A stretch of 58,711 nt of DNA from a virus. Taxonomy: Duplodnaviria; Heunggongvirae; Uroviricota; Caudoviricetes. The notes below the pieces were generated by a model, which was not told the DNA's origin, ran no database searches, and saw only the letters and a list, made by a program, of their open reading frames with translations. The DNA lies in IMG/VR virus record IMGVR_UViG_2925891887_000002. One strand, written 5' to 3'. The position numbers and the translations under genes were made by a program. Position 1 is the stretch's first letter; each line of letters starts with the position of its first letter. Below are positions 16,231 through 51,858 of the stretch, one piece after another.

Positions 16231-16754
<524 letters not shown>

Positions 16755-16755
16755 G

Positions 16756-18535
<1,780 letters not shown>

Positions 18536-19328: not shown

Positions 19329-20252
19329 TCGCCCTCCTGAGAGACGGGATTTACGTGCATCCAGTGCATCACGCATGACGGTGATCGCATCGGTACTGTT
19401 CACAAGTTCATCAGCCAGTCCGGCATCAATGGCCTCCTGACCGCTGTACACTGCAGCCTCGGTATCCAGCACAGCCTGCACGGACAGGCCGGTATATGCC
19501 GACACCTTCTGTGCAAACATCCGGCGGGTTGCATCCATCCGGGACTGCAGTGTTTCCCGGACATCATCCGGTAGATGGCTGTAGGGGTTGCCATCCACCT
19601 TATGGCTGCCGCTGTAAATCAGCGTGATTTCCACGCCCTGTTTCTCCAGCGCAGCACCGTAATTACTGTGAGCCATCATGACGCCGATGGAGCCTGTCCG
19701 GGCGGTCTGCGTGACCAGACGCCGGGAGGCGGCGCTGGCAAGCAGCTGACCTGCACTGCAGTTCATGTCGTTGGCCAGCGCCCATACCGGTTTTATGTCT
19801 CGCACACGGGCGATGATGTCAGCACAGTCAAATGCTCCCGCCACCATCCCGCCCGGTGTGTCCATATCCAGCAGAATGCCGTCCACAATCGGATCGCTGG
19901 CAGCCTGTTGCAGACGGGCGATAATGCCGTTGTAACCGGTCATCCCCGAATACGGCTGCAGCGCCCGCGTCCGGCTGACCAGCGTGCCGGACACCGGCAG
20001 CACGGCGATGCCGTTCATGACCTGATAACTGCGGGCCTGTCGTGGTCCGTCATCATCAACGGATAACGCCAGCGCCGCGGGTGCCTCTCCGGCAGTCAGG
20101 CTGTCGCCGGACACCGCATCCGCCAGGCGGCTGATCCCAAGCTGGCCTGCAAGCGCACAAAAGAAAACCCGCGCATAGGCGGGTTCAAGCATCAGCGGCT
20201 CATTAAAGGCCATACTGGCAATATGCGGGAGATTACGCAGCTCTGCTGTCAC
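18933..20252 (-). CDS. C: Capsid assembly protease C
   Basis: 439 aa from GTG (VTAELRNLPHIASMAF), lambda C match. Confidence 0.9.
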   Translation of the reverse strand: MTAELRNLPHIASMAFNEPLMLEPAYARVFFCALAGQLGISRLADAVSGDSLTAGEAPAALALSVDDDGPRQARSYQVMNGIAVLPVSGTLVSRTRALQPYSGMTGYNGIIARLQQAASDPIVDGILLDMDTPGGMVAGAFDCADIIARVRDIKPVWALANDMNCSAGQLLASAASRRLVTQTARTGSIGVMMAHSNYGAALEKQGVEITLIYSGSHKVDGNPYSHLPDDVRETLQSRMDATRRMFAQKVSAYTGLSVQAVLDTEAAVYSGQEAIDAGLADELVNSTDAITVMRDALDARKSRLSGGRMTKETQSTTVSATASQADVTGVVQATEGENASAAQPDVNAQITAAVAAENSRIMGILNCEEAHGREEQACVLAETPGMTVETARRILAAAPQSAQARSDTALDRLMQGAPAPLAAGNPASDAVNDLLNTPV

Positions 20253-21012
20253 TCTTCTCCTCCTCTGTTGATTGTCGCAGCCCGGATTCAAATGCTGCAG
20301 CCGCCCAGGCGGGCGGTTTAAGACCGGCTGCACGGCGCTCCATCGTTTCACGGACCTGCTGGGCAAAAATTTCCTGATAGTCGTCACCGCGTTTTGCGCA
20401 CTCTTTCTCGTAGGTACTCAGTCCGGCTTCTATCAGCATCACCGCTTCCTGAACTTCTTTCAGACCATCGATGGCCATACGACCGGAGCCTATCCAGTCG
20501 CAGTTCCCCCAGGCACTGCGGGCTTCCTGAAAACTGAAGCGCGCTTTTGAAGGTAACGTCACCACGCGGCGAACGATGGCCTCTTCCAGCCAGCACAGAA
20601 ACATCTGGCTCGCCTGACGGGATGCGACGAATTTTCGCCGCCCCATAAAGTACGCCCACGACTCGTTCGCACTGGCCCGTGCCGTGGAGTAGCTCATCTG
20701 GGCGTAATTCCGGGAAAGCTGCTCATACGAGACACCCAGCCCGGCAGCAATATACCGCAACAGTGACTGCTCAAACACGGAGTAGCCGTTATCCGTGTCC
20801 TGAGCCGTCTGCAGGTTCAGTGAGTCCCCCGGCATCAGGTGCGGCACTTTTGCGCCTCCCAGCCGGACCGGTGCTGCGGCGTAATACGCGGCAATTTCAC
20901 CAATCCAGCCAGTCAGCCTTTCCCGCTGCTCCTGACTGTTCGCGCCCAGAATAAAATCCATCGCTGACTGCGTATCCAGCTCACTCTCAATGGTGGCGGC
21001 ATACATCGCCTT
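20233..21012 (-). pseudogene. B: Portal protein B, C-terminal fragment
   Basis: MYAATIESELDTQSAMDF...EEEKSDSRAA matches the lambda B C-terminal half; homology stops at the satellite junction. Confidence 0.9.
21001..21012. other. Satellite att core copy, left junction (ATACATCGCCTT)
   Basis: Direct repeat of 31400..31411 with one mismatch. Confidence 0.65.
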
Positions 21013-21086
21013 TATGAAAAGACAGGAAAAAATAAAATTTAAAAACAGTACATTACGAATGCTCAGACCTATCGTTTAAAGGAGTC

Positions 21087-21107
21087 GCAATACACACTGC
21101 AATACAC
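21087..21107 (+). repeat. Two GCAATACAC direct repeats, putative integrase arm-type sites (left end)
   Basis: Same 9-mer occurs three times at the int-proximal end. Confidence 0.5.
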
Positions 21108-21194
21108 GATTATTTATAAGATGAGCGGCATCCGTCATAAAGCTGGTGGATGCTTTTTCTATGCATATATGCACAGTTTTAGTGGGCGTTAATG

Positions 21195-21218
21195 TCGATA
21201 TAGGGATCCCCATATCGA
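21195..21218. repeat. Nested palindrome TCGATATAGGGATCCCCATATCGA
   Basis: 7-bp inverted arms flanking a GGATCC core. Confidence 0.4.
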
Positions 21219-21450
21219 GATTGGATACCTGGCTTTTTTCCGGTTAACCTTTAATCAGGCTGGTGGGCTTTACCTGTTTTGTATGAGTGGTCATCATGAC
21301 CATGTCATAACAAAAACCCCATATTCGTGGTTTTTCTGTGTCGGGCTATTCTGTCGTTGCTGTGCTGATTTGGCTGGTGGGCTGAATCATCATTACGGCG
21401 ATGCAGCTATGTAGACGTTCCGGCCTCCTCAAATTGAGGATTGTGGAAGA

Positions 21451-21810
21451 ATCAATGGGTTAGTCTTACTTTCCCGACATCCCCCAATGGGGGTTTTCGA
21501 AACAATCAATAGCTTAGGCTTACTTCCCCGATTTCCTGCATTGCAGGTTTTCGAAATAATCAATGGGTTAGGCCATCGTGCAATTTTGCACTTTGCCAGC
21601 CAGCGCAATGTCGCGTTATCAGTCCTCAGATGTGAGGGATGTAGCCAGCTTTTCCCCCAGTGGGGGATATCCAGCACCGACGGCTTAACTGTGCGTGCCA
21701 GCACAAGGTAGCCTTGAACTACTTACTGCATCCCATCTTACAGGCCGTGCCTTCCTGCTTAACTTTTTGCAATGCAACAAGTCAGCCAGCGCAATTTTGC
21801 GTTATCGGGA
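21451..21810. repeat. Array of 54-bp tandem repeat units and 12 to 14-bp GC-rich palindromes, several followed by T-runs
   Basis: Units at 21451, 21505, 21559; palindromes at 21481, 21535, 21578, 21654, 21790. Confidence 0.7.
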
Positions 21811-21821
21811 ATATCAGCAAG

Positions 21822-22103
21822 TTACCGCCGCAATCGTTCCGGCTTCTTCCACTGGTAAGTATTTTTCGCGCTCTCCCTCCGTTGTTGAGAACGGCGACGA
21901 TATGCCAGCAACTCAAGGACTCTTGTTCGTATGTTGCGCATATCCACGCCGTTAAGCTCAATACCGTCACGGCGCATCACCTCAGCCACTACACGCACAT
22001 AATTATCTGCGGTCACGCTGTCCGGCTGCGTGGCCTGTTCGTCATGCTGCTTGCTGATTCCACAAGCACGGCGGATTAATCGCAGTATTTCGGATTCAGT
22101 CAT
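21822..22103 (-). CDS. Hypothetical protein (satellite)
   Basis: 93-aa ORF just downstream of the terS-like gene, same strand. Confidence 0.4.
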   Translation of the reverse strand: MTESEILRLIRRACGISKQHDEQATQPDSVTADNYVRVVAEVMRRDGIELNGVDMRNIRTRVLELLAYRRRSQQRRESAKNTYQWKKPERLRR

Positions 22104-22114
22104 AGCGTACTACG

Positions 22115-22642
22115 TTACTTATCTTTATTCGGCTGCAACTTATCCGGTACGTTTCCGGCAGTTTCCATCAGATAATCGGACAGCATCAGCGGTATGTTTT
22201 CGTCAAGTTTTGCGCATGCGTTACGGGCTCTGATAACTTCTTTTTTCAGTCCATCCAGCATAGACGGCTTCATGTCGGGAAACTTCCTTGTCATGGCAAG
22301 CGGCAGGCTGTCCATGATTGAAGAAATCTGACTCGCTAGTTTTGAAATCGCGTAGATGCAAAACTTTGTATCAATCACCTCGCCGCGTTCGCGCTCGTTT
22401 TTAAGTTCCTGCGCTTCCGCCTGGGCCGTCATTAATCTGATTCTTACGCGTAAAAGTTCATCATCATCAATCTCGCCTTTGTCGTCTGTAATCTGGTTAA
22501 TTGCATTGCTAACCCGATTGTCTATTACGCTGGCAACATCATAAAACGCCTCGCGGCCTTTACGTTCAACGGGAGTCACTCCCCACTTGTCGAACGCTGT
22601 CGCACTTACACGGCAGCTTTGCGCCATGTTTTTTTTGTTCAT
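22115..22642 (-). CDS. Small terminase (Nu1)-like protein, candidate packaging-redirection factor
   Basis: C-terminal two thirds align with Nu1 at 34333..34878 (RLxxAQAxAQELKN..); N-terminus divergent; start chosen at MNKKNMAQ. Confidence 0.7.
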   Translation of the reverse strand: MNKKNMAQSCRVSATAFDKWGVTPVERKGREAFYDVASVIDNRVSNAINQITDDKGEIDDDELLRVRIRLMTAQAEAQELKNERERGEVIDTKFCIYAISKLASQISSIMDSLPLAMTRKFPDMKPSMLDGLKKEVIRARNACAKLDENIPLMLSDYLMETAGNVPDKLQPNKDK

Positions 22643-22790
22643 CAGGTGCGATTTCATCAATATCCCCACTTAAGTAATGTTTCAGGTTGGTGTATTGGCT
22701 TTATCTTTTCCTTTTTATTCATAGAGATAGAGCGAACAACAAAACCACCACCAGCACCCGAAAAAGGCTCATAAATAGCGAAAACCCGCG

Positions 22791-22802
22791 AGGTCGCCGC
22801 CC
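22791..22802. other. Satellite cosN (12-nt cohesive-end sequence)
   Basis: AGGTCGCCGCCC with lambda-like flanks on the cosQ side, divergent on the cosB side. Confidence 0.8.
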
Positions 22803-22858
22803 CGTAGCCTACCGGATCGCCGGAAAGGACCCGCCAGCCAGAACGGGCCCTAATTTCA

Positions 22859-23263
22859 TCAACCAATCAACTTATAGCGACCATCCCGTGCATTGCGACG
22901 TACACGCTCAATCTTGAGGCATAGCGCCGCATCTGGCTTTTTTGGGACAGGTACGCGGCAATATTCAGAAGATCGAGGAATATTGTTTATCCAGTCGATC
23001 ACTTCACTTAAATACCAGGCCTTACGCCCTTCCGTAACCTGTACGCGTTCGGGGAACTCTCCGCGAGCCTCAAGGTTTAGCAATGTGCGACGGCTAAGGG
23101 TAGTAAGTTCCATCACCTGATTCATATCAACAAGGCGTTCACTTAAACGCATTTTGTCAGCAATAGCCTTTAATTCCTCTACTGCTGGATCCGGATACAT
23201 CATTTCGGCAATTGGCTTAAGGTCATTGTAATGATTCTGCATTGTATCCCCCTTTACACACAA
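22859..23263 (-). CDS. AlpA-like HTH protein with N-terminal extension
   Basis: 134-aa ORF; C-terminal half has an AlpA/excisionase-like motif. Confidence 0.5.
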   Translation of the reverse strand: MCVKGDTMQNHYNDLKPIAEMMYPDPAVEELKAIADKMRLSERLVDMNQVMELTTLSRRTLLNLEARGEFPERVQVTEGRKAWYLSEVIDWINNIPRSSEYCRVPVPKKPDAALCLKIERVRRNARDGRYKLIG

Positions 23264-23595
23264 GCCAGCGGCTGAACAGAAATACCTGAGCCAACAAACG
23301 CGGCAACCTTTGCCGACAGTTCTTTTACAGACTCAGGCCAGTTCAGAGCATCAACATTTAAAACACCTGTCTTATAAACCTGTGCCTGTGTTTTTTTCGC
23401 TGTGTCGATTTGTACAGCGGAAACATAAACCGCTTTACCTACGCTCGAACCATCCCATACCACCAGTGCACCTGTTGCATCTTCCTGCATCAGTGGCGTA
23501 AATGCAGGAATTACCCCTTTATTAGCTGAAAATATCCCCAGCGTAGTCACCAGTGCTTCAGTGCCAGCCATGAGTTCAGTGTAATGAGTAGCCAT
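23254..23595 (-). CDS. Head decoration protein D homologue (satellite)
   Basis: 113 aa; conserved blocks shared with D at 18591..18923 (TPLM..WDG, K(S/T)G..WPE). Confidence 0.7.
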   Translation of the reverse strand: MATHYTELMAGTEALVTTLGIFSANKGVIPAFTPLMQEDATGALVVWDGSSVGKAVYVSAVQIDTAKKTQAQVYKTGVLNVDALNWPESVKELSAKVAAFVGSGISVQPLACV

Positions 23596-23604
23596 TGCTC
23601 CCCC

Positions 23605-24651
23605 TTAGCCAATGCGAACGGTAACAAAACGATTGATGCGGGCCGGTATTGGCTGTGGTGCTGAATGTGTCTGCACATATTCAATAGCCGGATCACCAGG
23701 CACAATATAGTTTTTCGGTGCAAGTTCGGCTTTAGTCAGCCCCATTCGGATTAGCTCCGGATCCTGAATACCGCCATAGGCGACAATCCCCTGAAGAGCC
23801 GTATTGCCAAGCACCATCAAATCAGGATCAAGGAAATGTTTTTCTGTTCCGTCCTCGTCGGTATAACGCCCGCTGTAAACAACAATCGCAACATCGCCCA
23901 TATACCCTTTAAAACTCACCGAATCACCAAGGTCTTTAAGGGCCGTTTCCAGTTCGGAATTAGAACCACGACGGGTATCCAAAGCCTCTTTTATCGCTCT
24001 GAATGAACGGTATTTCTTCCATACATTACCACCCATAATGATGATATTAGTGACGCCCTCACTAAATTCTGCGTAGCTCTCAATATCATCATTTGGATCA
24101 AAAGTTTCTTTATCCTTACCTGACCACTCAGTACCGCCAGACTGAGTGATGATATTTTGTGGTTTTATATTCCAGTCCAGCTCATAACGTTCAATACCAT
24201 CGCCCTCAATGATATTTTTCCCCGTTGTGATTGCCTGAACAGCAAGCCATTCAATACGTGCACGAATAGCTTTAGCCTGATTTACAATCGCCTGTTTAAC
24301 TTTAATATTACGCGCCCCAAAAGCATTGTATTGCTCAGGTGACACACCAGCAGGGCGCACAGCTAACTTATTTGGATCAATGCTGCTTTTCGGCTTCATA
24401 TAACCTGGACGAATTGTTTTTGATTCGTATCCCTCATCTCGTGAAACTTTACTGCCCACCATAGGAGAGCAAAACGCCGCGATCGGGATATTTGGATCGT
24501 CGATCGTATCAAGAATAATGTCTCTCGATTCAAACATTACCGAGCGAGTGAAAAACAAACTGGTAAACAACGCATTTAATTTTTTTTGCACATCTTCAGC
24601 ATTAGCCACCTGCACAAGCTGTGTAGGCGAATATAAATCAACCATACGCAT
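23605..24651 (-). CDS. Major capsid protein E homologue (satellite)
   Basis: Aligns with E along its length (ITQSGGTEWS, DPxDDIE, LDTRRGSNSELETA, AIVVYSG); start chosen at MRMVDLY; ORF extends upstream to 24819. Confidence 0.75.
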   Translation of the reverse strand: MRMVDLYSPTQLVQVANAEDVQKKLNALFTSLFFTRSVMFESRDIILDTIDDPNIPIAAFCSPMVGSKVSRDEGYESKTIRPGYMKPKSSIDPNKLAVRPAGVSPEQYNAFGARNIKVKQAIVNQAKAIRARIEWLAVQAITTGKNIIEGDGIERYELDWNIKPQNIITQSGGTEWSGKDKETFDPNDDIESYAEFSEGVTNIIIMGGNVWKKYRSFRAIKEALDTRRGSNSELETALKDLGDSVSFKGYMGDVAIVVYSGRYTDEDGTEKHFLDPDLMVLGNTALQGIVAYGGIQDPELIRMGLTKAELAPKNYIVPGDPAIEYVQTHSAPQPIPARINRFVTVRIG

Positions 24652-24862
24652 CCTCTTTGCATTCATTAAAAATAATTGTGGATATATGCTATCACCGATA
24701 TTTGTCATGCGAATACATGCAACCGAGTGCAATGTTGTATAAAGTTTTGGGATAACAACTTCAGCGCGGATAATTAGTGTTAATATCTTCACTCCCTTTG
24801 GTCGGGATTTATGTAGCATGCCGGAAAATTTATTTTTTTCCGGCCTTTTTTATTGGCAATAT

Positions 24863-25312
24863 TTAAAACGGAATATCATCTCCCCATTGCTCATTTTCTC
24901 CCACTGGTGGATGGCTTCCTTGCTGATCTGCCTGTTGTTTTGCTCTGTTCAGTGCGTCAGTAGCCTGACCCTGTTGACCTTTTTTGCCGCCCGGTCGCAC
25001 CGTTCGCGCACTGATTACGCTGTCTGCGATAACCTGCCAGCCCTGCCGCGTTTCACCGTTCTGGCCTGTCCACTGTCTTACCTGCATGTTACCCGCCACG
25101 CTCACCAGTTCGCCTTTGTGGTGTTTTGCCAGTGCGTCGGCCTGTCTGCCAAACGCCAGGACGGATAACCACATCGTCGCCGTTCCGTCATCTGCCTGGC
25201 TGCACGGAAGGGGGACCGCCATACTAGCCATCGTCATTTGTGTACCCTTGCTGGTGGTCTTTAACTGCGGGTCAGCCACCAGCCGCCCGTAAGCCGCTAT
25301 CTGTGCTGTCAT
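24863..25312 (-). CDS. ssb: Single-stranded DNA-binding protein
   Basis: 149 aa, OB-fold-like, ends with the SSB acidic tip DDIPF. Confidence 0.7.
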   Translation of the reverse strand: MTAQIAAYGRLVADPQLKTTSKGTQMTMASMAVPLPCSQADDGTATMWLSVLAFGRQADALAKHHKGELVSVAGNMQVRQWTGQNGETRQGWQVIADSVISARTVRPGGKKGQQGQATDALNRAKQQADQQGSHPPVGENEQWGDDIPF

Positions 25313-25560
25313 GCTGTCTGCTCTCCAGTTTTAACGTTGATGGTTGTCACCTGTTCCGCTTCGGCAATCTCCCGTTCTGTCAGCGTGGCAAAGTTTGCCG
25401 CCGTCGTGGTCATGAATGCGCTTATCAGTTCGGGGTGTGCTTTCGCGTATCCTTCCCCAGCGTGGCGGTCTATCGTTCTGATTGCCACCTTTAAGGCGTG
25501 CTCTGTCATGTCTAACGCTTTATATTTTGGCGCTGTCTTATCTCTGGTTTTTCTGGTCAT
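25309..25560 (-). CDS. Hypothetical protein (satellite)
   Basis: 83-aa ORF between ori and ssb. Confidence 0.4.
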   Translation of the reverse strand: MTRKTRDKTAPKYKALDMTEHALKVAIRTIDRHAGEGYAKAHPELISAFMTTTAANFATLTEREIAEAEQVTTINVKTGEQTA

Positions 25561-25765
25561 TCCTCACTGCTCCCCACTTTTACTACCCACTTTTTGAAAT
25601 TACCCAACGTCTCCCCACTTCTTTTTTTTGTGATTCTAACGTGATGTTTTTCAATGTGTTTTTTATTCCCCACTTTTTGGGGTATATACAGGTGGGAAAG
25701 TGGGGAATCACGTTTCAATTTTGTTAAATTCCCCACACTCCCCACTTTTACTACCCACTTTTTAC
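25561..25765. repeat. Putative satellite replication origin with CCCCACT iterons
   Basis: At least eight CCCCACT(T) motifs in both orientations plus AT-rich stretches, directly 3' of the rep gene. Confidence 0.6.
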
Positions 25766-27177
25766 AGTGGGCGCACGTCATCACCGTCAATAGCAATAAC
25801 GCCATCACCTTCCAGCTTGTACAGCCAGCGCCGGAAGTGTTTCATCTCATACCCCAGCTTTTTCATATCATCGCGCAACAACGGAATAGTGCATTTATCT
25901 CCGCGCTGTGTGCGTGAACGGATACAGCCCCATAGCGCGGCATGATTCTCCGTCTTGTTCCCGGCTTCCTCGATGCGCTCCAGTTCAACGGGTGGGCGCG
26001 GCTTATCCACAACAACCAGCGACGTGATTAACTCCCCGTCAGTGTCGGTAAAAAGCTCCACCACACGTAAATCGTATGCGGCCTCTTTCAGTTCCTCCGC
26101 GTCCTTCATTTTTGTGCAGGAGATAACCAGGGCTTCACTGTCTGCACCTTCACGGCGAATACGGTATTCAGCGTCCAGAGATGCACGAAATGCACTGGAA
26201 CCACGCGCCCCCTTTGTTTCATCCTTGCCGGAATGGTGAACCACCAGCACCGTGGCCCCTGTGCGGCGTTTCAGTTCGTCACATCCACGGATAAACGCCC
26301 CCATATCCCGCGCGTCATTTTCATCATTACCGCCAAAGCAACGCGCCAGCGTATCAAGAATAATCATGCGTACCGGTTTACCCGTTTCCCGTTCAACCTG
26401 GCGGGAAGCGATGACCATTTCATCAACATCAAGCGGGACTGCCGGAAAAATCGGGCGGTTTACCAGGTACAGATTTTCCACCCGTTCATCATTAACGATT
26501 TCCCATGCCTTGATACGGCGGGGGACACCAATGCCACCTTCACCGACAACATACATCACCGAACCATGCGCCACCCTGCGGCCTCCCCAGTGACGGCCAG
26601 TGGCAACATGACACGCCCAGGAACACGCGAGGAACGATTTATAGGAACCGCTCGCGCCGTATGTGCTGCACAATGAATTAGCCGGAATCACGCCCTTAAC
26701 GACATAATCAAGCTGTGTGTCGTACCCTGCAGATCCAATGCTCATTGGTAGCGTGGTTTTTCGCTGGCTGTATTGCTCGTCAGTAAGTATTTCCCCGCGC
26801 TCTGCCTGTTCGCGGATCCGTTGCAGGTAGTCGTGCCAGTTCTCCAGCTTCTGGCTGTGCATTCCATCAGGGTAATAATTCGCATCCCGTACACCTGCCG
26901 CCGCCAGCTTTTGCCCGATAGCATTAATATTTGACGGCTTGATGTGGCCTGCCTTGTACAGCCGGACACAATAGCGACCATCGTCGATAATTTTCAGGTC
27001 TGCCAGTTCGTCAAGCTGGCTGTCTCCCAGCCATACAGGCGGGACGTTATCACCAGCAAGTCGCCCGTCCTGTTCCTGCCACTGTTTCGCGTGCGCCCAG
27101 GCATCACTACCCGCAAAAATAATGACTTCGGTCATTTTGTCGTGTGGCTGTTTTTTTAAGTTCGGTGCCAGTTTCAT
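25762..27177 (-). CDS. Replication initiator ATPase (RepA/AAA_25-like helicase with primase-like N-terminus)
   Basis: 471 aa; Walker A GASGSYKS; ILDTLARCF and LVVHHSGK motifs. Confidence 0.7.
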   Translation of the reverse strand: MKLAPNLKKQPHDKMTEVIIFAGSDAWAHAKQWQEQDGRLAGDNVPPVWLGDSQLDELADLKIIDDGRYCVRLYKAGHIKPSNINAIGQKLAAAGVRDANYYPDGMHSQKLENWHDYLQRIREQAERGEILTDEQYSQRKTTLPMSIGSAGYDTQLDYVVKGVIPANSLCSTYGASGSYKSFLACSWACHVATGRHWGGRRVAHGSVMYVVGEGGIGVPRRIKAWEIVNDERVENLYLVNRPIFPAVPLDVDEMVIASRQVERETGKPVRMIILDTLARCFGGNDENDARDMGAFIRGCDELKRRTGATVLVVHHSGKDETKGARGSSAFRASLDAEYRIRREGADSEALVISCTKMKDAEELKEAAYDLRVVELFTDTDGELITSLVVVDKPRPPVELERIEEAGNKTENHAALWGCIRSRTQRGDKCTIPLLRDDMKKLGYEMKHFRRWLYKLEGDGVIAIDGDDVRPL

Positions 27178-27473
27178 TTTTTGCCCCTGAATGCGTTAAT
27201 CATGTTTTTCATTTTCTGAATATTTGCCCGTGCCTTTGCGTTGCTGGTGGGCTGTTTGCGTGGTGTGGCCTGTATCAGTGAAAAATCACGCCGGAACTGA
27301 TAAGCAGGCATCACGCAGTCATAGCCGTACCCATCACGGCGGTAAGTAACGCACCGCCCCGCCACGCTTTTAATCGTTACCGTGCCACCGTAGTTATCCC
27401 GGAAAATATCGCCGGGGCGGATTTCAGGCCGAGGGAGACCACTGGCAGTAAAGCCAGAATTTTTCTGTTTCAT
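27174..27473 (-). CDS. Hypothetical protein
   Basis: 99-aa ORF. Confidence 0.4.
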   Translation of the reverse strand: MKQKNSGFTASGLPRPEIRPGDIFRDNYGGTVTIKSVAGRCVTYRRDGYGYDCVMPAYQFRRDFSLIQATPRKQPTSNAKARANIQKMKNMINAFRGKK

Positions 27474-27479
27474 GTTTTT

Positions 27480-27698
27480 TTACTCCAGAGGCAGATTTTT
27501 AGCGGCGAGTTCAATATCAGATGTCAGAGAAACCTGTGTATTTGCCAGGTCTAACAACAAAGAAATAAGAATTTCCTCTCTGCTATCGGATTCATCGGTG
27601 CTAAGGCTGTTCATCCACATATTGACGACTTCCCTGATTTTTTTCGCAGAGTGCAGGGCTTCAAATGCCAGGTCTTCAATATCATGTTTATTTCGCAT
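27480..27698 (-). CDS. Hypothetical small protein
   Basis: ORF from internal Met MRNKHDIEDL. Confidence 0.3.
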   Translation of the reverse strand: MRNKHDIEDLAFEALHSAKKIREVVNMWMNSLSTDESDSREEILISLLLDLANTQVSLTSDIELAAKNLPLE

Positions 27699-27900
27699 AA
27701 TCGCCCCCGCGTAACTGGTCTGCACTAACACCCGATTTAGTGAGCATTTCAGAAAATCCCGCAAGAGTGCTGATAAATTCGTTTTCCATTAAACGGCACT
27801 GGCATTTAACCCGGCCTTTTTCCAGATACACCAGTACGCGCCACGTATAATCTGACGGCACATTCAGCACTACAGATAAGTGCGCTTCATTATTATTCAT
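27688..27900 (-). CDS. Hypothetical small protein
   Basis: 70-aa ORF. Confidence 0.35.
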   Translation of the reverse strand: MNNNEAHLSVVLNVPSDYTWRVLVYLEKGRVKCQCRLMENEFISTLAGFSEMLTKSGVSADQLRGGDYAK

Positions 27901-28129
27901 GGCTCACCACCTCCATATCAGCCATGATAATTTTGCTGGCCTCATTCAGTGCCATATCAGCACTAAGTTGCATTACAGCCAGTGAATGAGGAACGAAAGC
28001 CCCGGCATATTCTGTTTCACTGGTAGCGTGCTTATGCGCCCTGTCCGCGATAACAGAAATATCAATCAGCGCATCAATCAGTGTTTTGATTGCTTCGGCG
28101 GCTGCGTCCGGACGGGTGTTATTGCACAT
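27893..28129 (-). CDS. Hypothetical small protein
   Basis: 78-aa ORF. Confidence 0.35.
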   Translation of the reverse strand: MCNNTRPDAAAEAIKTLIDALIDISVIADRAHKHATSETEYAGAFVPHSLAVMQLSADMALNEASKIIMADMEVVSHE

Positions 28130-28325
28130 GGTGCACCCCCTGACGAATACGGGCGGCGAATACCATCACGCAGCCAGCCGGTGATTGCTGACGGGCTTCC
28201 TGTTCGCTGGTGGCCTCAATGGTAATCACGCGCGGTTGTGCCGTACTCAGGGCGATAAAACGCCAGATGTATTTATTCAGGTTGTGCGAGCCCCGCCCTT
28301 GCGGGTGTGTGGTATGATTTCTCAT
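28119..28325 (-). CDS. Hypothetical small protein, first gene of the leftward satellite operon
   Basis: 68-aa tail of a longer spurious ORF, starting at ATG 28323..28325 next to the operator region. Confidence 0.35.
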   Translation of the reverse strand: MRNHTTHPQGRGSHNLNKYIWRFIALSTAQPRVITIEATSEQEARQQSPAGCVMVFAARIRQGVHHVQ

Positions 28326-28422
28326 AGCTACCTCGATACTGTTGCTATCGTTGGTGGTTAGAAGCCCGGTTAGTGTTAGCGCACTGCCGGGTTTCGTCGT
28401 TTCTGCACCTTGCACCAACAAG

Positions 28423-28474
28423 GTGTTGAACACCAATTTAAACCCAGGTGTTGAACACGTCAAGTGTTGAACAC
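28423..28474. promoter_or_regulatory. Three direct repeats of GTGTTGAACAC in a divergent promoter region (putative operators)
   Basis: Repeats at 28423, 28448 and 28464 between divergent small genes. Confidence 0.55.
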
Positions 28475-28524
28475 TTGTTTTTTTTCCTGCATACTGCATT
28501 TGTTTTTTGTGAGGGGTACACAAC

Positions 28525-28704
28525 ATGGCGACAAAAGCAGTAAACGCAAAATCACAAACAGTTGCGGCAAGGGTTCCGCATGAAGTTATGAACAATGTTG
28601 AGGCGGTAAAAATGCCTGGTGAAAGTACAGGGCAGTTTGTAACAGCAGCATTAAAGCGAGAAGTTGAATACCGCCAGCGACGCAAGGCTAAAGAGCAAGA
28701 ATAA
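28525..28704 (+). CDS. Small putative DNA-binding regulator
   Basis: 59-aa ORF (not in the track) with GAGGGG Shine-Dalgarno 8 nt upstream. Confidence 0.45.
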   Translation: MATKAVNAKSQTVAARVPHEVMNNVEAVKMPGESTGQFVTAALKREVEYRQRRKAKEQE

Positions 28705-28761
28705 TCACTATCAGCGCTGTGGTGTGAGGTACTCCGGCGCATTGCTTTACAGGTCGGCACT

Positions 28762-28971
28762 ATGAGCAAAAAATACCTATCCACTGAAGAGATTTTCGCA
28801 GAACAACGAAGATTGCTTTTACAGAGCATTGTTGCACGCCAGAAAGAAAAGGCACACGCTAAACAAATGCCACCAAATACAGAACCAGCGCCTACAAAAT
28901 TTGCGCTTGATGAGTTTCTCAATAAACAGCCCCGGGTAATGAAAGCTAACAGGAACCGCCCACCAGGCTGA
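28762..28971 (+). CDS. Hypothetical small protein
   Basis: 69-aa ORF downstream of the regulator. Confidence 0.4.
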   Translation: MSKKYLSTEEIFAEQRRLLLQSIVARQKEKAHAKQMPPNTEPAPTKFALDEFLNKQPRVMKANRNRPPG

Positions 28972-29067
28972 TCACATTGCCCACCAGCCGCAAATGTGGC
29001 ATTGTTGGTGATGCTTTTGTTTTCCCTTGTTCCCACTGGCGACCCTTTTGCGGTCGCCTTTGTTTTG

Positions 29068-29646
29068 TCACTGAATGCGGTTACCAAAGTAAAACTCAGG
29101 CTGATATTCACGTATCAGCGTTTTTTCTTCTTCCTCCAGCTCACGCTTTTTGCGCTTACATGCCTGTAGCTCCCTCCCCTTCTCGCTGGCACTTATTTGA
29201 TATTGCTCTTTACGGCGGGAAAAATCCTGTAATGCACCCCACGGGATACCATAAGCCCCCGTTTTTCTGATACCCGGTATCACATTTCTGAATACCCAGT
29301 TACTGAAACGATGAGCAAATGTGCCAGGCGTCGTTGCTTTGCGGCTGCGGGCTATTAGTTTGTAGAAACCTGACTCAGAGATAATTCTCATATTCTGATT
29401 TCCTCCTGGGGTGTAAGTTAAATTTACTCCCTTTTCATCATCATCAAGCATCTGCAACGCCGTACGCGAATTGGTTAGTTCCAGCACAGCACAAACATCT
29501 TTTGCAACAAACCACGGATCGCCGTTCAGATACACCACACGAACGTTCACACTATCAAAGCGCAGAACGACGAGATCACGAATATCGCAGAATTTTTTCA
29601 CTGGACGAGCGTACCCCTTGCCCGTCACGGCAATATTTTTATTCAT
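29068..29646 (-). CDS. Bro-N domain protein (antirepressor-like)
   Basis: 192 aa; N-terminal motif VRVVYLNGDPWFVAKDV typical of Bro-N. Confidence 0.65.
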   Translation of the reverse strand: MNKNIAVTGKGYARPVKKFCDIRDLVVLRFDSVNVRVVYLNGDPWFVAKDVCAVLELTNSRTALQMLDDDEKGVNLTYTPGGNQNMRIISESGFYKLIARSRKATTPGTFAHRFSNWVFRNVIPGIRKTGAYGIPWGALQDFSRRKEQYQISASEKGRELQACKRKKRELEEEEKTLIREYQPEFYFGNRIQ

Positions 29647-29663
29647 CGCGTTTTTACCTTATA

Positions 29664-29690
29664 GACAAAAAACCCCTCGTGATGAGGGGC
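29664..29690 (-). terminator. Rho-independent terminator downstream of alpA
   Basis: CCCCTC..GAGGGG hairpin followed by a T-run on the minus strand. Confidence 0.55.
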
Positions 29691-29702
29691 ATTATTTACT
29701 GG

Positions 29703-29960
29703 TTATTGCTGTTTTGTTTTTCCAGGTTTCCATCCAGGATGCCACTCACCACGGATCCATGCCTGAACCTCTGAAAGTCGATACCCTGCAGCACGTTCAC
29801 CGATCTTGATACGTCGCGGGAATTTACCTGCCTGCTCCATTTTCCAGCGTGTTGAGTTTGCCAGCGTGGTAAGTGCTATGCACTCTTTTTCACGAATGAA
29901 CCGATCAATGTCCTTCATTGTGCGCAAATCGTTTTCATCAACAAGAGAATAAATTGCCAT
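29703..29960 (-). CDS. alpA: AlpA-family regulator / excisionase
   Basis: 85 aa, AlpA motif, directly downstream of int. Confidence 0.75.
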   Translation of the reverse strand: MAIYSLVDENDLRTMKDIDRFIREKECIALTTLANSTRWKMEQAGKFPRRIKIGERAAGYRLSEVQAWIRGEWHPGWKPGKTKQQ

Positions 29961-29961
29961 A

Positions 29962-31203
29962 TCACACCACCTCTTTATTAAGCTCGATAACGTTGTTGTT
30001 AAATCCTGCTATCGTATTAAGGTAATTAACCCATATATTAAGCACCTCAAGTTTTTTCTTTATATGCCTGCTTTTATTGTAAACACCAGCAACCCCTTTC
30101 ACTTTATGACCTAAAAGAAGTTCGACAATATAAGGATCCGCCCCCATATCATTAAGCGTAGTGGAAAATGTGCGCCTGAAATCATGTATGCACCACAAGC
30201 CATTAGTATCATGACCAAGACGCCTGCATATTCTGTTTGCAGCCCCTGTTATTGTCGCCCTTTGCAAAGCACAACCGACAACATAACCGCGATTTTTTGT
30301 TTCTGCGTAAAGATTAACGATCCATTGTTTTATTCCGTCAGGAACAGGCCTTACTATAGCCTCCTTGTTTTTGCTGTGCTCTTTTGGGACTGTCCATACC
30401 CAGTTTTTTAAATCCCATTCGTCCCAGGTGGATAGCCTCGCCTCCTGCTGTCGGCAACCAAACACCAGGCAGATAACCATTATTCTTCGGTTATATATTG
30501 ATGACAGAGTTAGCAAATTATTACCGTAAGCATAAGACCATACATCAGCGGTTTCATTGATATTAAGAACGCGATCCCTTATACCGGATGAGCGCCCGAC
30601 ATAACTTACGTTAATATCTCCAAAGGGATCGCACGCGATGTATTGCCTGACGCGACAAAAACGCAACGCCTGTTTGATATCAAGAAAAATTGCACCAGAC
30701 ATAACAGGCGCATTTTTTTTGATCCTGTCAAAGACGGTAAGCCATGTGTGTAATTTGCACTGTTCTATAGCCATATCACCGATATAGGGGAAGATATGCT
30801 TTTCAAATCGTTTTATTAAATATTCATGCTCTTTTCTGGCTGTTGTGGCGTGATTGTCGTACCAGTAAAACAGCGCATCCCTTACGGTCACTGGTTGCAT
30901 AGTTTTTTCGGCAGCAAGTTTTATTTGCCTGCGGGGGTCCAGATTTTCAGCCAGCCATTCACGGCACTGATCACGCATGCGCCTGGCCGTTGCAAGAGAC
31001 ATGTCAGGATAGCGACCAAGTGTAAGCCATACCGGAGGGGATTCCCTGCCACCAAGACGATAGTAAAAAACAAAGCTGATCCCCCCAACCATGCTTACAC
31101 GCACAGACAACCCGCGCCCATCCGCTATTGTTTTTTGTTTGTCCTGCCGTTTTCCGACAAGACTCTTTAACAGTTTGTCACTGAGTTTGTTTTCAATAGC
31201 CAT
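29962..31203 (-). CDS. int: Tyrosine integrase (P4/PICI-type)
   Basis: 413 aa; C-terminal HDFRRTF and LLGH..Y catalytic motifs. Confidence 0.85.
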   Translation of the reverse strand: MAIENKLSDKLLKSLVGKRQDKQKTIADGRGLSVRVSMVGGISFVFYYRLGGRESPPVWLTLGRYPDMSLATARRMRDQCREWLAENLDPRRQIKLAAEKTMQPVTVRDALFYWYDNHATTARKEHEYLIKRFEKHIFPYIGDMAIEQCKLHTWLTVFDRIKKNAPVMSGAIFLDIKQALRFCRVRQYIACDPFGDINVSYVGRSSGIRDRVLNINETADVWSYAYGNNLLTLSSIYNRRIMVICLVFGCRQQEARLSTWDEWDLKNWVWTVPKEHSKNKEAIVRPVPDGIKQWIVNLYAETKNRGYVVGCALQRATITGAANRICRRLGHDTNGLWCIHDFRRTFSTTLNDMGADPYIVELLLGHKVKGVAGVYNKSRHIKKKLEVLNIWVNYLNTIAGFNNNVIELNKEVV

Positions 31204-31223
31204 TAAAAGCCCTCAAGAGATTT

Positions 31224-31274
31224 GCAATACACACCCATCCCGATCGCCAATTTGCAATACACATTGCAATACAC
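31224..31274 (+). repeat. Three GCAATACAC direct repeats, putative integrase arm-type sites (int-proximal)
   Basis: Copies at 31224, 31254 and 31266. Confidence 0.5.
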
Positions 31275-31399
31275 AAAACCGCGAAAAACTGGAAGGGTGA
31301 TGAACGGTCATCAAAAGCATGGAAAACGACATTCCAGACGCAGCAAGGGTTTCAGTGGAGTTGGCGAACGATGCGGGCAACTACGGTGAGATGATAGAC

Positions 31400-34332
<2,933 letters not shown>

Positions 34333-34358
<26 letters not shown>

Positions 34359-34878
34359 TCAGCAACCCCGGTATCAGTTCATCCAGCGCGGCTGCTTTGT
34401 TCATGGCTTTGATGATATCCCGTTTCAGGAAATCAACATGTCGGTTTTCCAGTTCCGGAAAACGCCGCTGCACCGACAGGGGGATCCCGTCGAGAATACT
34501 GGCAATTTCACCTGCGATCCGCGACAACACGAAAGTACAGAATGCGGTTTCCACCACTTCAGCGGAGTCTCTGGCATTCTTCAGTTCCTGTGCGTCGGCC
34601 TGCGCACGCGTAAGTCGATGGCGTTCGTACTCAATAGTCCCTGGCTGGAGATCTGCCTCGCTGGCCTGCCGCAGTTCTTCAACCTCCCGGCGCAGCTTTT
34701 CGTTCTCAATTTCAGCATCCCTTTCGGCATACCATTTTATGACGGCGGCAGAGTCATAAAGCGCCTCATTACCCTTGCCACCGCCTCGCAGAACGGGCAT
34801 TCCCTGTTCCTGCCAGTTCTGAATGGTACGGATACTCGCACCGAAAATGTCAGCCAGCTGCTTTTTGTTGACTTCCAT
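34333..34878 (-). CDS. Nu1: Terminase small subunit Nu1
   Basis: 181 aa, lambda Nu1 match. Confidence 0.95.
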
Positions 34879-35055
34879 TGTTCATTCCACGGACAAAAAC
34901 AGAGAAAGGAAACGACAGAGGCCAAAAAGCTCGCTTTCAGCACCTGTCGCTTCCTTTCTTTTCAGAGGGTATTTTAAATAAAAACATTAAGTTATGACGA
35001 AGAAGAACGGAAACGCCTTAAACCGGAAAATTTTCATAAATAGCGAAAACCCGCG

Positions 35056-35067
35056 AGGTCGCCGCCC
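35056..35067. other. Prophage cosN (12-nt cohesive end)
   Basis: AGGTCGCCGCCC with flanks matching both lambda ends as recalled. Confidence 0.9.
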
Positions 35068-35266
35068 CGTAACCTGTCGGATCGCCGGAAAGGACCCGCA
35101 AAATGATAATAATTATCATCTGCATGTCACAACGTGCATCTACGCCATCAAACCACGTCAAATAATCAATTATGACGCAGGTATCATATTAATTGATCTG
35201 CATCAACTTAACGTAAAAACAACTTCAGACAATACAAATCAGCGACACTGAATACGGGACAACCTC

Positions 35267-51621: not shown

Positions 51622-51693
51622 GTGCGGTTTTACCGCATACCAATAACGCTTCACTCGAGGCGTTTTTCGTTATGTATAAATAAGGAGCACACC

Positions 51694-51858
51694 ATGCAAT
51701 ATGCCATTGCAGGGTGGCCTGTTGCTGGCTGCCCTTCCGAATCTTTACTTGAACGAATCACCCGTAAATTACGTGACGGATGGAAACGCCTTATCGACAT
51801 ACTTAATCAGCCAGGAGTCCCAAAGAATGGATCAAACACTTATGGCTATCCAGACTAA
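51694..51858 (+). CDS. cIII: cIII
   Basis: 54 aa from MQYAIAGWPVAGCPSES, lambda cIII match. Confidence 0.9.
   Translation: MQYAIAGWPVAGCPSESLLERITRKLRDGWKRLIDILNQPGVPKNGSNTYGYPD

Follow-up and report, generated by a model that had tools for sequence, protein, structure and literature searches.

A helper-embedded phage satellite of Escherichia coli carries a predicted packaging-specificity module with an N15-type small terminase and its own cosB

We analysed the 58,711-nt Caudoviricetes sequence IMGVR_UViG_2925891887_000002 (the window; positions refer to this whole stretch), in which a helper-embedded phage-inducible chromosomal island (HE-PICI), Eco9790.10.B_Phage_portal_2_241, interrupts portal gene B of its helper. 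Region 22115-22834 is probably the packaging-specificity module of this satellite: as judged from sequence, the small terminase subunit (TerS) encoded there would replace the helper's small subunit Nu1 on satellite DNA and would recruit the helper's large terminase subunit (TerL), gpA. The satellite keeps cosQ, cosN and the adjoining flank, has replaced cosB and encodes an adjacent TerS. This arrangement had been proposed in a first-pass annotation made from the window alone and gains comparative support from the catalogue of such elements, from dN/dS, from conserved boxes in cosB and from the pairing of DNA-binding domains with site types. We infer from it a redirection of the helper terminase to the satellite cos. 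The element is listed as CP031134.1/86871-76473 in the catalogue of Tommasini, Mageeney and Williams 2023 (PMC10111431, Supplementary File 1), and a window position equals the CP031134.1 record position minus 55464. Gene annotation was taken from RefSeq for E. coli CFSAN064035, which is 100% identical to the window.

The lambda cohesive end is GGGCGGCGACCT; its reverse complement, the 12-mer AGGTCGCCGCCC, is present in exactly two copies in the window, one in the satellite (22791-22802) and one in the helper (35056-35067). Both have the same orientation and are spaced by 12,265 bp, which bears out the two co-oriented cos sites 12.3 kb apart of the first-pass annotation; two or more matches to the 12-mer with at most one mismatch were obtained in only 4 of 100 shuffles. 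In the following cos is numbered in phage orientation, which is the minus strand of the window, with bp 1 being the first G of GGGCGGCGACCT. An alignment of the two sites showed 63 of 66 positions to be identical from bp -32 to +34 (22769-22834 vs 35034-35099), so that the predicted match of the 12-mer and of the cosQ-side flank was found. Within this block bp 1-34 of the satellite match both the helper and lambda at 34 of 34 positions, and the heptamer GGGTCCT at bp -30 to -24 has the same sequence and the same distance to cosN as the helper copy. We take this heptamer to be the lambda cosQ, going by the coordinates of the right end of lambda; it was found in 70 of the 72 distinct contexts of the satellite family. 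Past bp 34 the identity of satellite and helper drops to 43% (bp 35-125). The helper is nearly identical to lambda over bp 1-190, and its lambda-type cosB (R3, I1, R2, R1), for which we used the R-site positions of lambda cosB from PMC9026076, shows 2-3 differences to lambda bp 35-190. The lambda large subunit uses cosQ, cosN and flank elements for nicking and termination (PMC9026076 among the background sources). The boundary of identity is informative: the satellite keeps cosQ and cosN with the flank as far as bp 34, and has replaced the part that would be read by TerS.

The satellite in the window has one cos only. Between it and the helper cos lie the helper genes Nu1, A and W together with the 5' part of B, followed by the stretch of the satellite that runs from int to the AlpA-like gene. 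The whole satellite had initially been placed in this interval as well, but 1.8 kb of it (21009-22790), comprising cosB, terS, orf93 and the attR arm, lies outside. Identity of the satellite 12-mer with that of the helper is no general rule: the satellite family shows 10 different cosN 12-mers among the 72 distinct contexts, with the same cosB and TerS type. In two other embedded pairs the satellites (L123:20055, L124:20055) carry GGGCGTCAGGCG and the helpers (L123:5035, L124:5252) GGGCGGCGACCT, which differ at 6 of 12 positions, with cosQ and both flanks retained. A DNA pattern search for the satellite cosB, the pattern being verified on known family loci, yielded 108 IMG/VR contigs; none of them was terminated at cos, which is uninformative as most are regions predicted in isolate genomes. 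A hairpin of 7 bp, GGGCCCG...CGGGTCC, overlaps the satellite cosQ (22826-22850, minus strand), and in related PICIs a canonical terminator hairpin with a T run is found directly upstream of cosQ. Expression of terS may therefore rely on read-through.

The segment between cosN and terS had been regarded as divergent, which holds for its low identity to the helper, but it is not unrelated to phage cosB: an N15-type array of R3, R2 and R1 can be read in it. The boxes became apparent from a comparison of this satellite with chromosomal PICIs of O157:H7 and other E. coli and with HE-PICIs of Citrobacter/Enterobacter-type hosts, whose TerS is 59% identical. The R3-like box at bp 51-68, GGTGGTGGTTTTGTTGTT (consensus GGTGGTGGT-T/G-TTGTT-G/A-TT), is 89-100% conserved across the satellites, compared with 39-62% in its flanks. 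The R2-like box, AATACACCAAC (reverse complement GTTGGTGTATT), is inverted and located at bp 107-117; of 53 distinct family contexts, 50 have it at precisely this position, allowing up to one mismatch. The R1-like box at bp 134-144, GTGGGGATATT, is degenerate in the window and overlaps the ribosome-binding region of terS; the O157 PICI has an exact direct GTTGGTGTATT at bp 134, as do 12 of the 53 contexts. With its cosQ, its cosN of 12 nt and R3, inverted R2 and R1 in cosB, the site has the lambdoid cos layout.

An informative phage counterpart is the N15-type prophage of strain K56-43-un (L123), which carries a related HE-PICI and encodes an N15-type TerS. Its R sites are built on GGTTGTTGT, with R3 at bp 51 (GGTTGTTGT at bp 51-59), R2 inverted at bp 108 and R1 at bp 188. 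Without gaps the satellite cosB matches that of the prophage at 59 of 91 positions (65%; mean of shuffles 24.9, standard deviation 4.2). The satellite R3 corresponds to the prophage R3 with T54G and T57G, and with its flanks the satellite R2 agrees with the inverted prophage R2 at 12 of 14 positions. R3 has been placed at bp 50-65 in lambda and at bp 48-60 in N15 (PMC9026076), and the satellite R3 overlaps both. Judged by these similarities, what had looked divergent is an ordered lambdoid cosB of the N15 type whose R sequences are slightly altered. A scan of the satellite spacer for the integration host factor consensus at up to one mismatch gave no match. An exact Chi octamer, GCTGGTGG, is located at 22748-22755 (minus strand; bp 48-55) and overlaps the start of the R3-like box. 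We rejected the conserved core GGTGGTGG as a Chi site: Chi is found in several family members, not in the O157 PICI or at L004. The core common to R2 and R1, GGTGTATTG, resembles the HE-PICI att-arm motif TGTATTGC described below, and the same box is also present in chromosomal PICIs; the doubled arm motif is reported to be absent from other PICIs, for example those with fis attPs (PMC10111431).

The gene next to this cosB encodes a protein of 180 aa. Its ATG at 22657, preceded at 5 nt by the ribosome-binding site GGGGA, lies at bp 146 from cosN, compared with bp 191 in lambda; alternative starts are at 22642, the ATG chosen in the first-pass annotation, and at 22669. That annotation had described the product as Nu1-like in its C-terminal two thirds only, a reading that arose because the Pfam profile PF07471 (Phage_Nu1; 82.3 bits vs a cut-off of 30) aligns only with aa 70-152. 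Homology to Nu1 as such was confirmed by BLASTP, which aligned aa 10-171 of the 184-aa open reading frame (ORF) with the helper protein at 37% identity (E 4e-35). The restriction to two thirds did not hold. PHROG 57, to which lambda Nu1 and N15 gp1 belong, matches aa 1-176 (E 1.3e-50), and the N-terminus is 52-58% identical to N15 gp1. Since these alignments span the protein, we assign the satellite TerS to the Nu1 family over its full length, with a winged helix-turn-helix of the N15 subtype predicted at its N-terminus. An N-terminal third unrelated to Nu1 was rejected on the basis of BLASTP, the N15 gp1 alignment, PHROG 57 and Pfam, which gave full-length alignments for close relatives of the satellite TerS and for N15 gp1.

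Among 50,697 phage records N15 gp1 is the closest match at 46% identity, and none exceeds 60%; identity to the TerS of the N15-type prophage is likewise 46%. Resolved by region, identity to N15 gp1 amounts to 58% in the DNA-binding domain (aa 1-50), 34% in the middle and 45% in the C-terminal region, and identity to helper Nu1 to 29%, 33% and 41%, respectively. A second alignment gave 52% to N15 gp1 and 35% to helper Nu1 for the DNA-binding domain. Like N15 gp1, the satellite TerS lacks the 11-residue segment that follows the 'SVI' motif in lambda (KWYAERDAEIE); N15 gp1 additionally lacks N60 of lambda. Secondary structure is predicted as strand-helix-helix-beta-hairpin-long helix, which fits a winged helix-turn-helix but does not prove it, and the best fold matches are weak ones to MerR-type winged helix-turn-helix proteins (E 0.2). 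At the other end of the protein the motif LDExIPxxLxxY, common to lambda and N15 TerS, is kept; binding to TerL has been mapped to the C-terminal ~40 residues of lambda TerS (PMC9026076). The satellite contains no TerL gene, and the sole TerL present is helper gene A. The TerS proteins of E. coli satellites end in a conserved tail, GNVP(D/E)KLxxxKxx (22115-22156, last ~13 codons), which is absent from phage TerS and from satellite TerS of Citrobacter/Enterobacter-type hosts.

At the same place in otherwise syntenic PICIs we found three kinds of module. In the family of the window satellite, GGTGGTGGT/GTTGGTGTATT boxes accompany a DNA-binding domain of the N15 type; in the E. coli C5 PICI (L012:10979-11800, tRNA-Pro), CATGTCGG R sites accompany one of the 21 type; and in EcCICFT073, ACCACCACC accompanies an Rpp protein. 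The C5 TerS is a chimera of a phage-21-type DNA-binding domain and a satellite-type C-terminal half; the 21-type R sites lie adjacent, cosN is GGGCGGCAGACG, and this island has no capsid genes. Because the type of the DNA-binding domain and the type of cosB pair across modules, the N-terminal domain would be expected to read the adjacent cosB, and this pairing is the best evidence available for it. Compared with its O157 homologue, terS shows a dN/dS of 0.22 overall and of 0.09 in the DNA-binding domain, with the C-terminal half changing fastest, which indicates purifying selection.

These data bear on the possibility that the satellite TerS is an interference factor, which would compete for or mis-target the helper TerL to the detriment of helper packaging and would contribute little to the use of the satellite cos. 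The fast evolution of the C-terminal half would agree with such a role. N15-type terminase has been reported to recognise lambda cosB, so that the satellite TerS might act on the helper cos, and the cos sites of EcCICFT073 are transduced by lambda in the absence of Rpp, albeit at reduced frequency. However, the strongest constraint falls on the DNA-binding domain and the adjacent cosB boxes, as fits a cognate pair of protein and site, and the C5 chimera retains a matching 21-type cosB beside its gene. Lambda terminase has furthermore been reported to be unable to package N15 cos. We consider an interference factor quite unlikely.

A known module at this position is cos1-RppA of EcCICFT073 (Fillol-Salom 2018, 2019; Murialdo and Feiss 2022). 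Both islands carry capsid gene, decoration gene, a gene of ~135 aa, cos, specificity gene and 93-aa gene in this order; the ~135-aa gene is AlpA-like in the window satellite and unannotated in CFT073. The satellite capsid protein is 55% identical to that of EcCICFT073 and 43% to the E protein of a lambda-like prophage, and orf93 is 76% identical to the protein encoded downstream of rppA. In both cases the cosQ, cosN and flank to bp 34 are lambda-like and a different cosB begins at bp 35, and Rpp proteins are likewise encoded just downstream of a PICI cos whose cosB is unlike that of the helper. The two islands differ in that EcCICFT073 has two cos sites, whereas the window satellite has one. 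A second, opposite-oriented cos with phage-like repeated R sites is found in the O157:H7 PICI (L011:10810, +) and in EcCICFT073 (L002:3309, -). For PICIs with Rpp one R3-like site without repeats has been described (PMC9026076), in contrast to the R3, inverted R2 and R1 of the satellite cosB. The Rpp core ACCACCACC (EcCICFT073 cos1 bp 55-63; L002:2613-2621) is the reverse complement of the satellite R3 core GGTGGTGGT (22744-22752) at nearly the same distance to cosN, and the reverse complement of CFT073 bp 49-65 contains the 11-mer GGTGGTGGTGT common to L004 and L008.

This likeness raises the question of whether the satellite TerS works as Rpp does, namely by forming mixed oligomers with helper Nu1 which block recognition of the helper cos and retarget the complex, so that Nu1 would still be needed. 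Besides the shared position, a central oligomerisation region homologous to that of Nu1 (33% identity), the TerS-like DNA-binding domain of Rpp itself and the fact that helper interference is a general trait of PICIs speak in its favour. Yet Rpp proteins have 139-154 aa compared with the 180 aa of the satellite TerS, whose Nu1-like region extends to the C-terminus. BLASTP of the satellite TerS against RppA returned no alignment, and the match of RppA to the TerS profile stops after the first ~40 positions. When the PDB was searched by sequence for the satellite TerS (E up to 10), no solved structure matched meaningfully, and solved Nu1 and RppC not at all. The C-terminal region thought to bind TerL is kept in the satellite TerS and missing in Rpp. 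The lambda mutations that escape Rpp (Y50N, A55V, E65K) are located in or next to the 11-residue segment that the satellite TerS lacks. Finally, identical satellite TerS proteins occur in helpers with lambda-type and with N15-type TerS. We regard an Rpp-like mode of action as unlikely. Murialdo and Feiss have argued that Rpp depends on the helper TerS for want of the C-terminal TerL-binding region (PMC9026076); as the satellite TerS possesses such a region, we propose a full replacement of Nu1.

It is also conceivable that terS and cos no longer have a role and are inert remains of late genes captured from a phage. Capture of helper late genes by PICIs does occur, a scan for sigma-70-like promoters around cos and terS found no site, and the helper-satellite pair itself may be defective, as its helper is interrupted twice, in B by the satellite and in capsid gene E by IS621 (IS110 family; ~16699-17977, transposase 16805-17785). 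The ORF is, however, intact and under purifying selection, the non-coding boxes are conserved, and position and order of the module are fixed across hundreds of genomes in several genera. The lack of a phage TerS with more than 60% identity in the 50,697 records also points to a long-standing satellite lineage instead of a recent capture. This explanation was already disfavoured, and we hold it to be highly improbable.

A full replacement of Nu1 would proceed as follows. Upon induction of the composite prophage the satellite would excise at AAGGCGAT, restoring portal gene B, and would replicate. A TerS dimer would then bind the satellite cosB via its N15-type winged helix-turn-helix, with predicted contacts to R3 (bp 51-68), to inverted R2 (bp 107-117), for which the A/T-rich spacer is probably bent, and to a weak R1. 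The Nu1-like C-terminal region would recruit the lambda-type gpA of the helper, which would nick the cosN common to satellite and helper and translocate satellite DNA into proheads. Packaging would terminate at the next satellite cos via the conserved cosQ, cosN and right flank. DNA binding, recruitment of gpA, cutting and independence from Nu1 are deduced here from sequence relationships. Helper Nu1, being 99% identical to lambda Nu1, should not recognise the satellite cosB, which would provide the satellite with a private initiation signal combined with the nuclease and motor of the helper. Reportedly, lambda terminase cannot package N15 cos, while N15 terminase can package lambda (PMC9026076). 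By analogy the satellite signal may be closed to helper Nu1, and the reverse need not hold.

Several observations weigh against a full replacement of Nu1. The satellite R sites differ from N15-type sites by 1-2 bases only and N15 terminase is reported to package lambda DNA, so that the specificity may be less private than proposed. In the window the R1-like box has 3 mismatches and is the weakest of the three boxes, and the structure model of the satellite TerS is of low confidence (predicted local distance difference test score, pLDDT, 62.5). The C-terminal region is only 41% identical to that of lambda Nu1, not far above the 34% found there between lambda and 21, whose TerL specificities differ. 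Identical satellite TerS proteins are present in two helpers whose TerL N-terminal 50 residues are 54% identical, implying either promiscuous TerL binding or that embedding is no guarantee of compatibility. No association was found between the type of the cosN 12-mer and the C-terminal type of TerS. The sole published test found very poor transfer of the two TerS-encoding E. coli islands examined, IHE3034 and 18098, with no helper identified (Fillol-Salom 2018), and because of IS621 in helper gene E the pair studied here may not be productive.

We rejected the idea that the satellite TerS tracks the TerL type of its helper, as identical TerS proteins occur with different TerL N-termini, which speaks against a strict TerL specificity. 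Mosaic structure was seen in the helper TerL of K56-43-un (L123:5741-7669): residues 1-50 form a type of their own, with 56% identity to lambda A and 44% to the 21 type, the remainder is 96% identical to the 21-type TerL of the CFT073 prophage, and the TerS of this helper is N15-type.

Table 1. Features of the satellite and of the flanking helper genes in the window.
Feature	Position	Strand	Remarks
Portal gene B, 3' part	20233..21015	-	Phage_portal_2 positions 235-354; RefSeq pseudogene
attR identity block AAGGCGAT	21005..21012	-	satellite/portal 3' part junction; read from sequence
HE-PICI Eco9790.10.B_Phage_portal_2_241	21009..31407	-	10,399 bp; in helper portal gene B, co-oriented with helper late genes
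Doubled att-arm motif TGTATTGCagtgTGTATTGC	21087..21106	-	exact match
orf93, 93 aa	21822..22103	-	downstream of terS; function unassigned; PHROG 1561
Satellite TerS, 180 aa	22115..22657	-	Nu1 family, predicted N15-type DNA-binding domain; RefSeq WP_032195591.1 'terminase small subunit'
R1-like box, bp 134-144	22659..22669	-	degenerate
R2-like box, bp 107-117	22686..22696	+	inverted
R3-like box, bp 51-68	22735..22752	-	
Block common to satellite and helper cos	22769..22834	-	cosQ, cosN, 22-bp right flank
Satellite cosN 12-mer GGGCGGCGACCT	22791..22802	-	equals helper and lambda bp 1-12
Satellite cosQ GGGTCCT, bp -30 to -24	22826..22832	-	
AlpA-like helix-turn-helix gene	22859..23242	-	directly upstream of satellite cos; Pfam Phage_AlpA, RefSeq
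Lambda-D-like decoration gene	23254-23595	-	Pfam HDPD
Lambda-E-like major capsid gene	23605-24645	-	Pfam Phage_cap_E
Doubled att-arm motif, second copy	31254..31273	-	exact match
Portal gene B, 5' part	31400..32233	-	Phage_portal_2 positions 2-239; RefSeq pseudogene
attL identity block AAGGCGAT	31404..31411	-	portal 5' part/satellite junction; read from sequence
Helper terminase gene A	32433-34358	-	RefSeq terminase large subunit; 86% identical to N15 gp2
Helper Nu1	34333-34878	-	179/181 identical to lambda Nu1
Helper lambda-type cosB	34879..35033	-	between cosN and Nu1
Helper cosQ, cosN and right flank	35034..35099	-	12-mer at 35056-35067

The coordinates of the satellite and of the neighbouring helper genes are given in Table 1. 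Its genes are arranged in the order int, AlpA-type regulator, Bro-N, Icd-like, RepA helicase, SSB, E-like capsid, D-like decoration, AlpA-like, cos, TerS and orf93, with an integrase of Arm-DNA-bind_3 and Phage_integrase domains and a replication gene of the RepA/AAA_25 type. The AlpA-like gene upstream of cos occupies the same position in all family loci. Integration has taken place in a late gene: portal gene B is split at Phage_portal_2 position ~235-239, and both halves as well as the core satellite genes are encoded on the minus strand. The layout is that of HE-PICIs, with tyrosine integrase and AlpA at the upstream end followed by Bro, replication and late zones, and the element was assigned to this group via its catalogue entry. 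The identity block AAGGCGAT is the one given for this site group in PMC10111431. Exactly two matches to the doubled att-arm motif were found in the window, with a chance expectation of 0.03, at ~80-90 bp and ~135-145 bp from the AAGGCGAT cores. The HE-PICI-specific doubled motif has been described as tgTGTATTGCantgTGTATTGCa, lying ~81 bp upstream of the attP centre and 132 bp downstream of it, and is also written TGTATTGCnnnnTGTATTGC with the unit TGTATTGC (PMC10111431).

Between attR and the 93-aa gene a stretch of ~800 bp (21013-21821) has no annotated gene and contains one mechanical ORF of 91 aa with a GTG start (21429-21704, minus strand). The cargo beside terS or in the Bro zone varies among related HE-PICIs (L004-L010 7559-8916; L123/L124 13278-13961 and 21432-22193); it includes genes for FRG-domain, DUF3892, TIR-domain and abortive-infection proteins, which are likely anti-phage systems. 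Rfam matches above the gathering score in the window are IS009 RNA (44-242, -) and the lambda cIII thermoregulator element (51681-51739, +).

The module can further be placed among known systems. HE-PICIs such as Eco567.11capE also reside in, and are co-oriented with, a helper late gene, have the doubled TGTATTGC arm motif and follow the integration-Bro-replication-late layout. Unlike the window satellite, with its own TerS and cosB and 66 bp in common with the helper cos, Eco567.11capE is without terS and has 258 bp at 90% identity to its helper at cos (PMC10111431), which implies a helper-type cosB. N15 gp1 with cosB-N15 and the N15-type prophages share with the satellite the DNA-binding-domain subtype (...AFDKWGV.PVE..GRE.F.DV.SV...) and GGTTGTTGT-based R sites in the same register. 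They differ in encoding TerS beside their own TerL, whereas the satellite is without TerL. The satellite R sites show T-to-G changes (GGTGGTGGT, GTTGGTGTATT) and the recognition helix starts with SAT instead of SVQ; its TerS has a C-terminal type of its own and the extra tail GNVPDKLQPNKDK.

TerS-SP of the pac-type staphylococcal pathogenicity islands is likewise a satellite-encoded TerS homologue thought to pair with the helper TerL and to steer packaging towards the DNA of the satellite. Those islands, however, use headful (pac) packaging in Gram-positive cocci, have an unrelated TerS family and encode a separate interference protein, Ppi, whereas the window satellite has, to go by its sequence features, cos-type packaging in which the cohesive ends are defined and termination depends on cosQ. 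Capsid-forming PICIs also have their own major capsid protein and TerS (PMC10085698), but in addition encode TerL, portal, protease and head-tail connectors, none of which is present in the window satellite.

With two co-oriented cos sites and identical ends, cos-to-cos packaging of the unexcised, replicating composite could yield circularisable hybrid molecules, although we think this distinctly unlikely. One such molecule could be the 12.3-kb segment from helper cos to satellite cos, with Nu1, A, W, the 5' part of B and most of the satellite; another could be the segment of ~46.7 kb from satellite cos to helper cos, a length derived from the 59-kb composite size in the catalogue. If formed, hybrids of this kind would offer a concrete route for the capture of helper late genes by PICIs, towards capsid-forming satellites, and the divergent 12-mers of the other embedded pairs would insulate against them.

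The satellite as such is already known as a catalogued HE-PICI with a terS annotated by RefSeq. TerS encoded by PICIs has been counted among their core components (PMC10085698), some E. coli islands have been stated to 'encode TerS' (Fillol-Salom 2018), and PMC10111431 contains no analysis of cos or TerS specificity. Nowhere in the literature searched was this TerS described as N15-type, and neither the R3/R2/R1 organisation of its cosB nor its relation to the Rpp module was found there. A DNA search detected the satellite cos-TerS module in 793 of 5,426 complete E. coli genomes compared with 110 for RppA/B, a ~7-fold difference, RppC being too divergent for counting in this way. Carriers include O157:H7, strain EcN_Sk (apparently a Nissle 1917 derivative) and strains of the ST95 (sequence type 95) group. 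A peptide-pattern scan for TerS relatives in one genome per species found none, probably because the element is absent from the representative genomes.

Rpp, acting via the helper TerS, is the sole mechanistically understood takeover of lambda-type packaging by E. coli cos satellites. If the module works as proposed, most E. coli cos PICIs would need only the large terminase of a helper, which would alter the range of phages that can serve as helpers. This bears on the spread of these islands and of their defence and virulence genes. The modules would also be natural material for studying how TerS-cosB specificity is coded, with pairs that differ by few residues in the protein and by one or two bases per R site.

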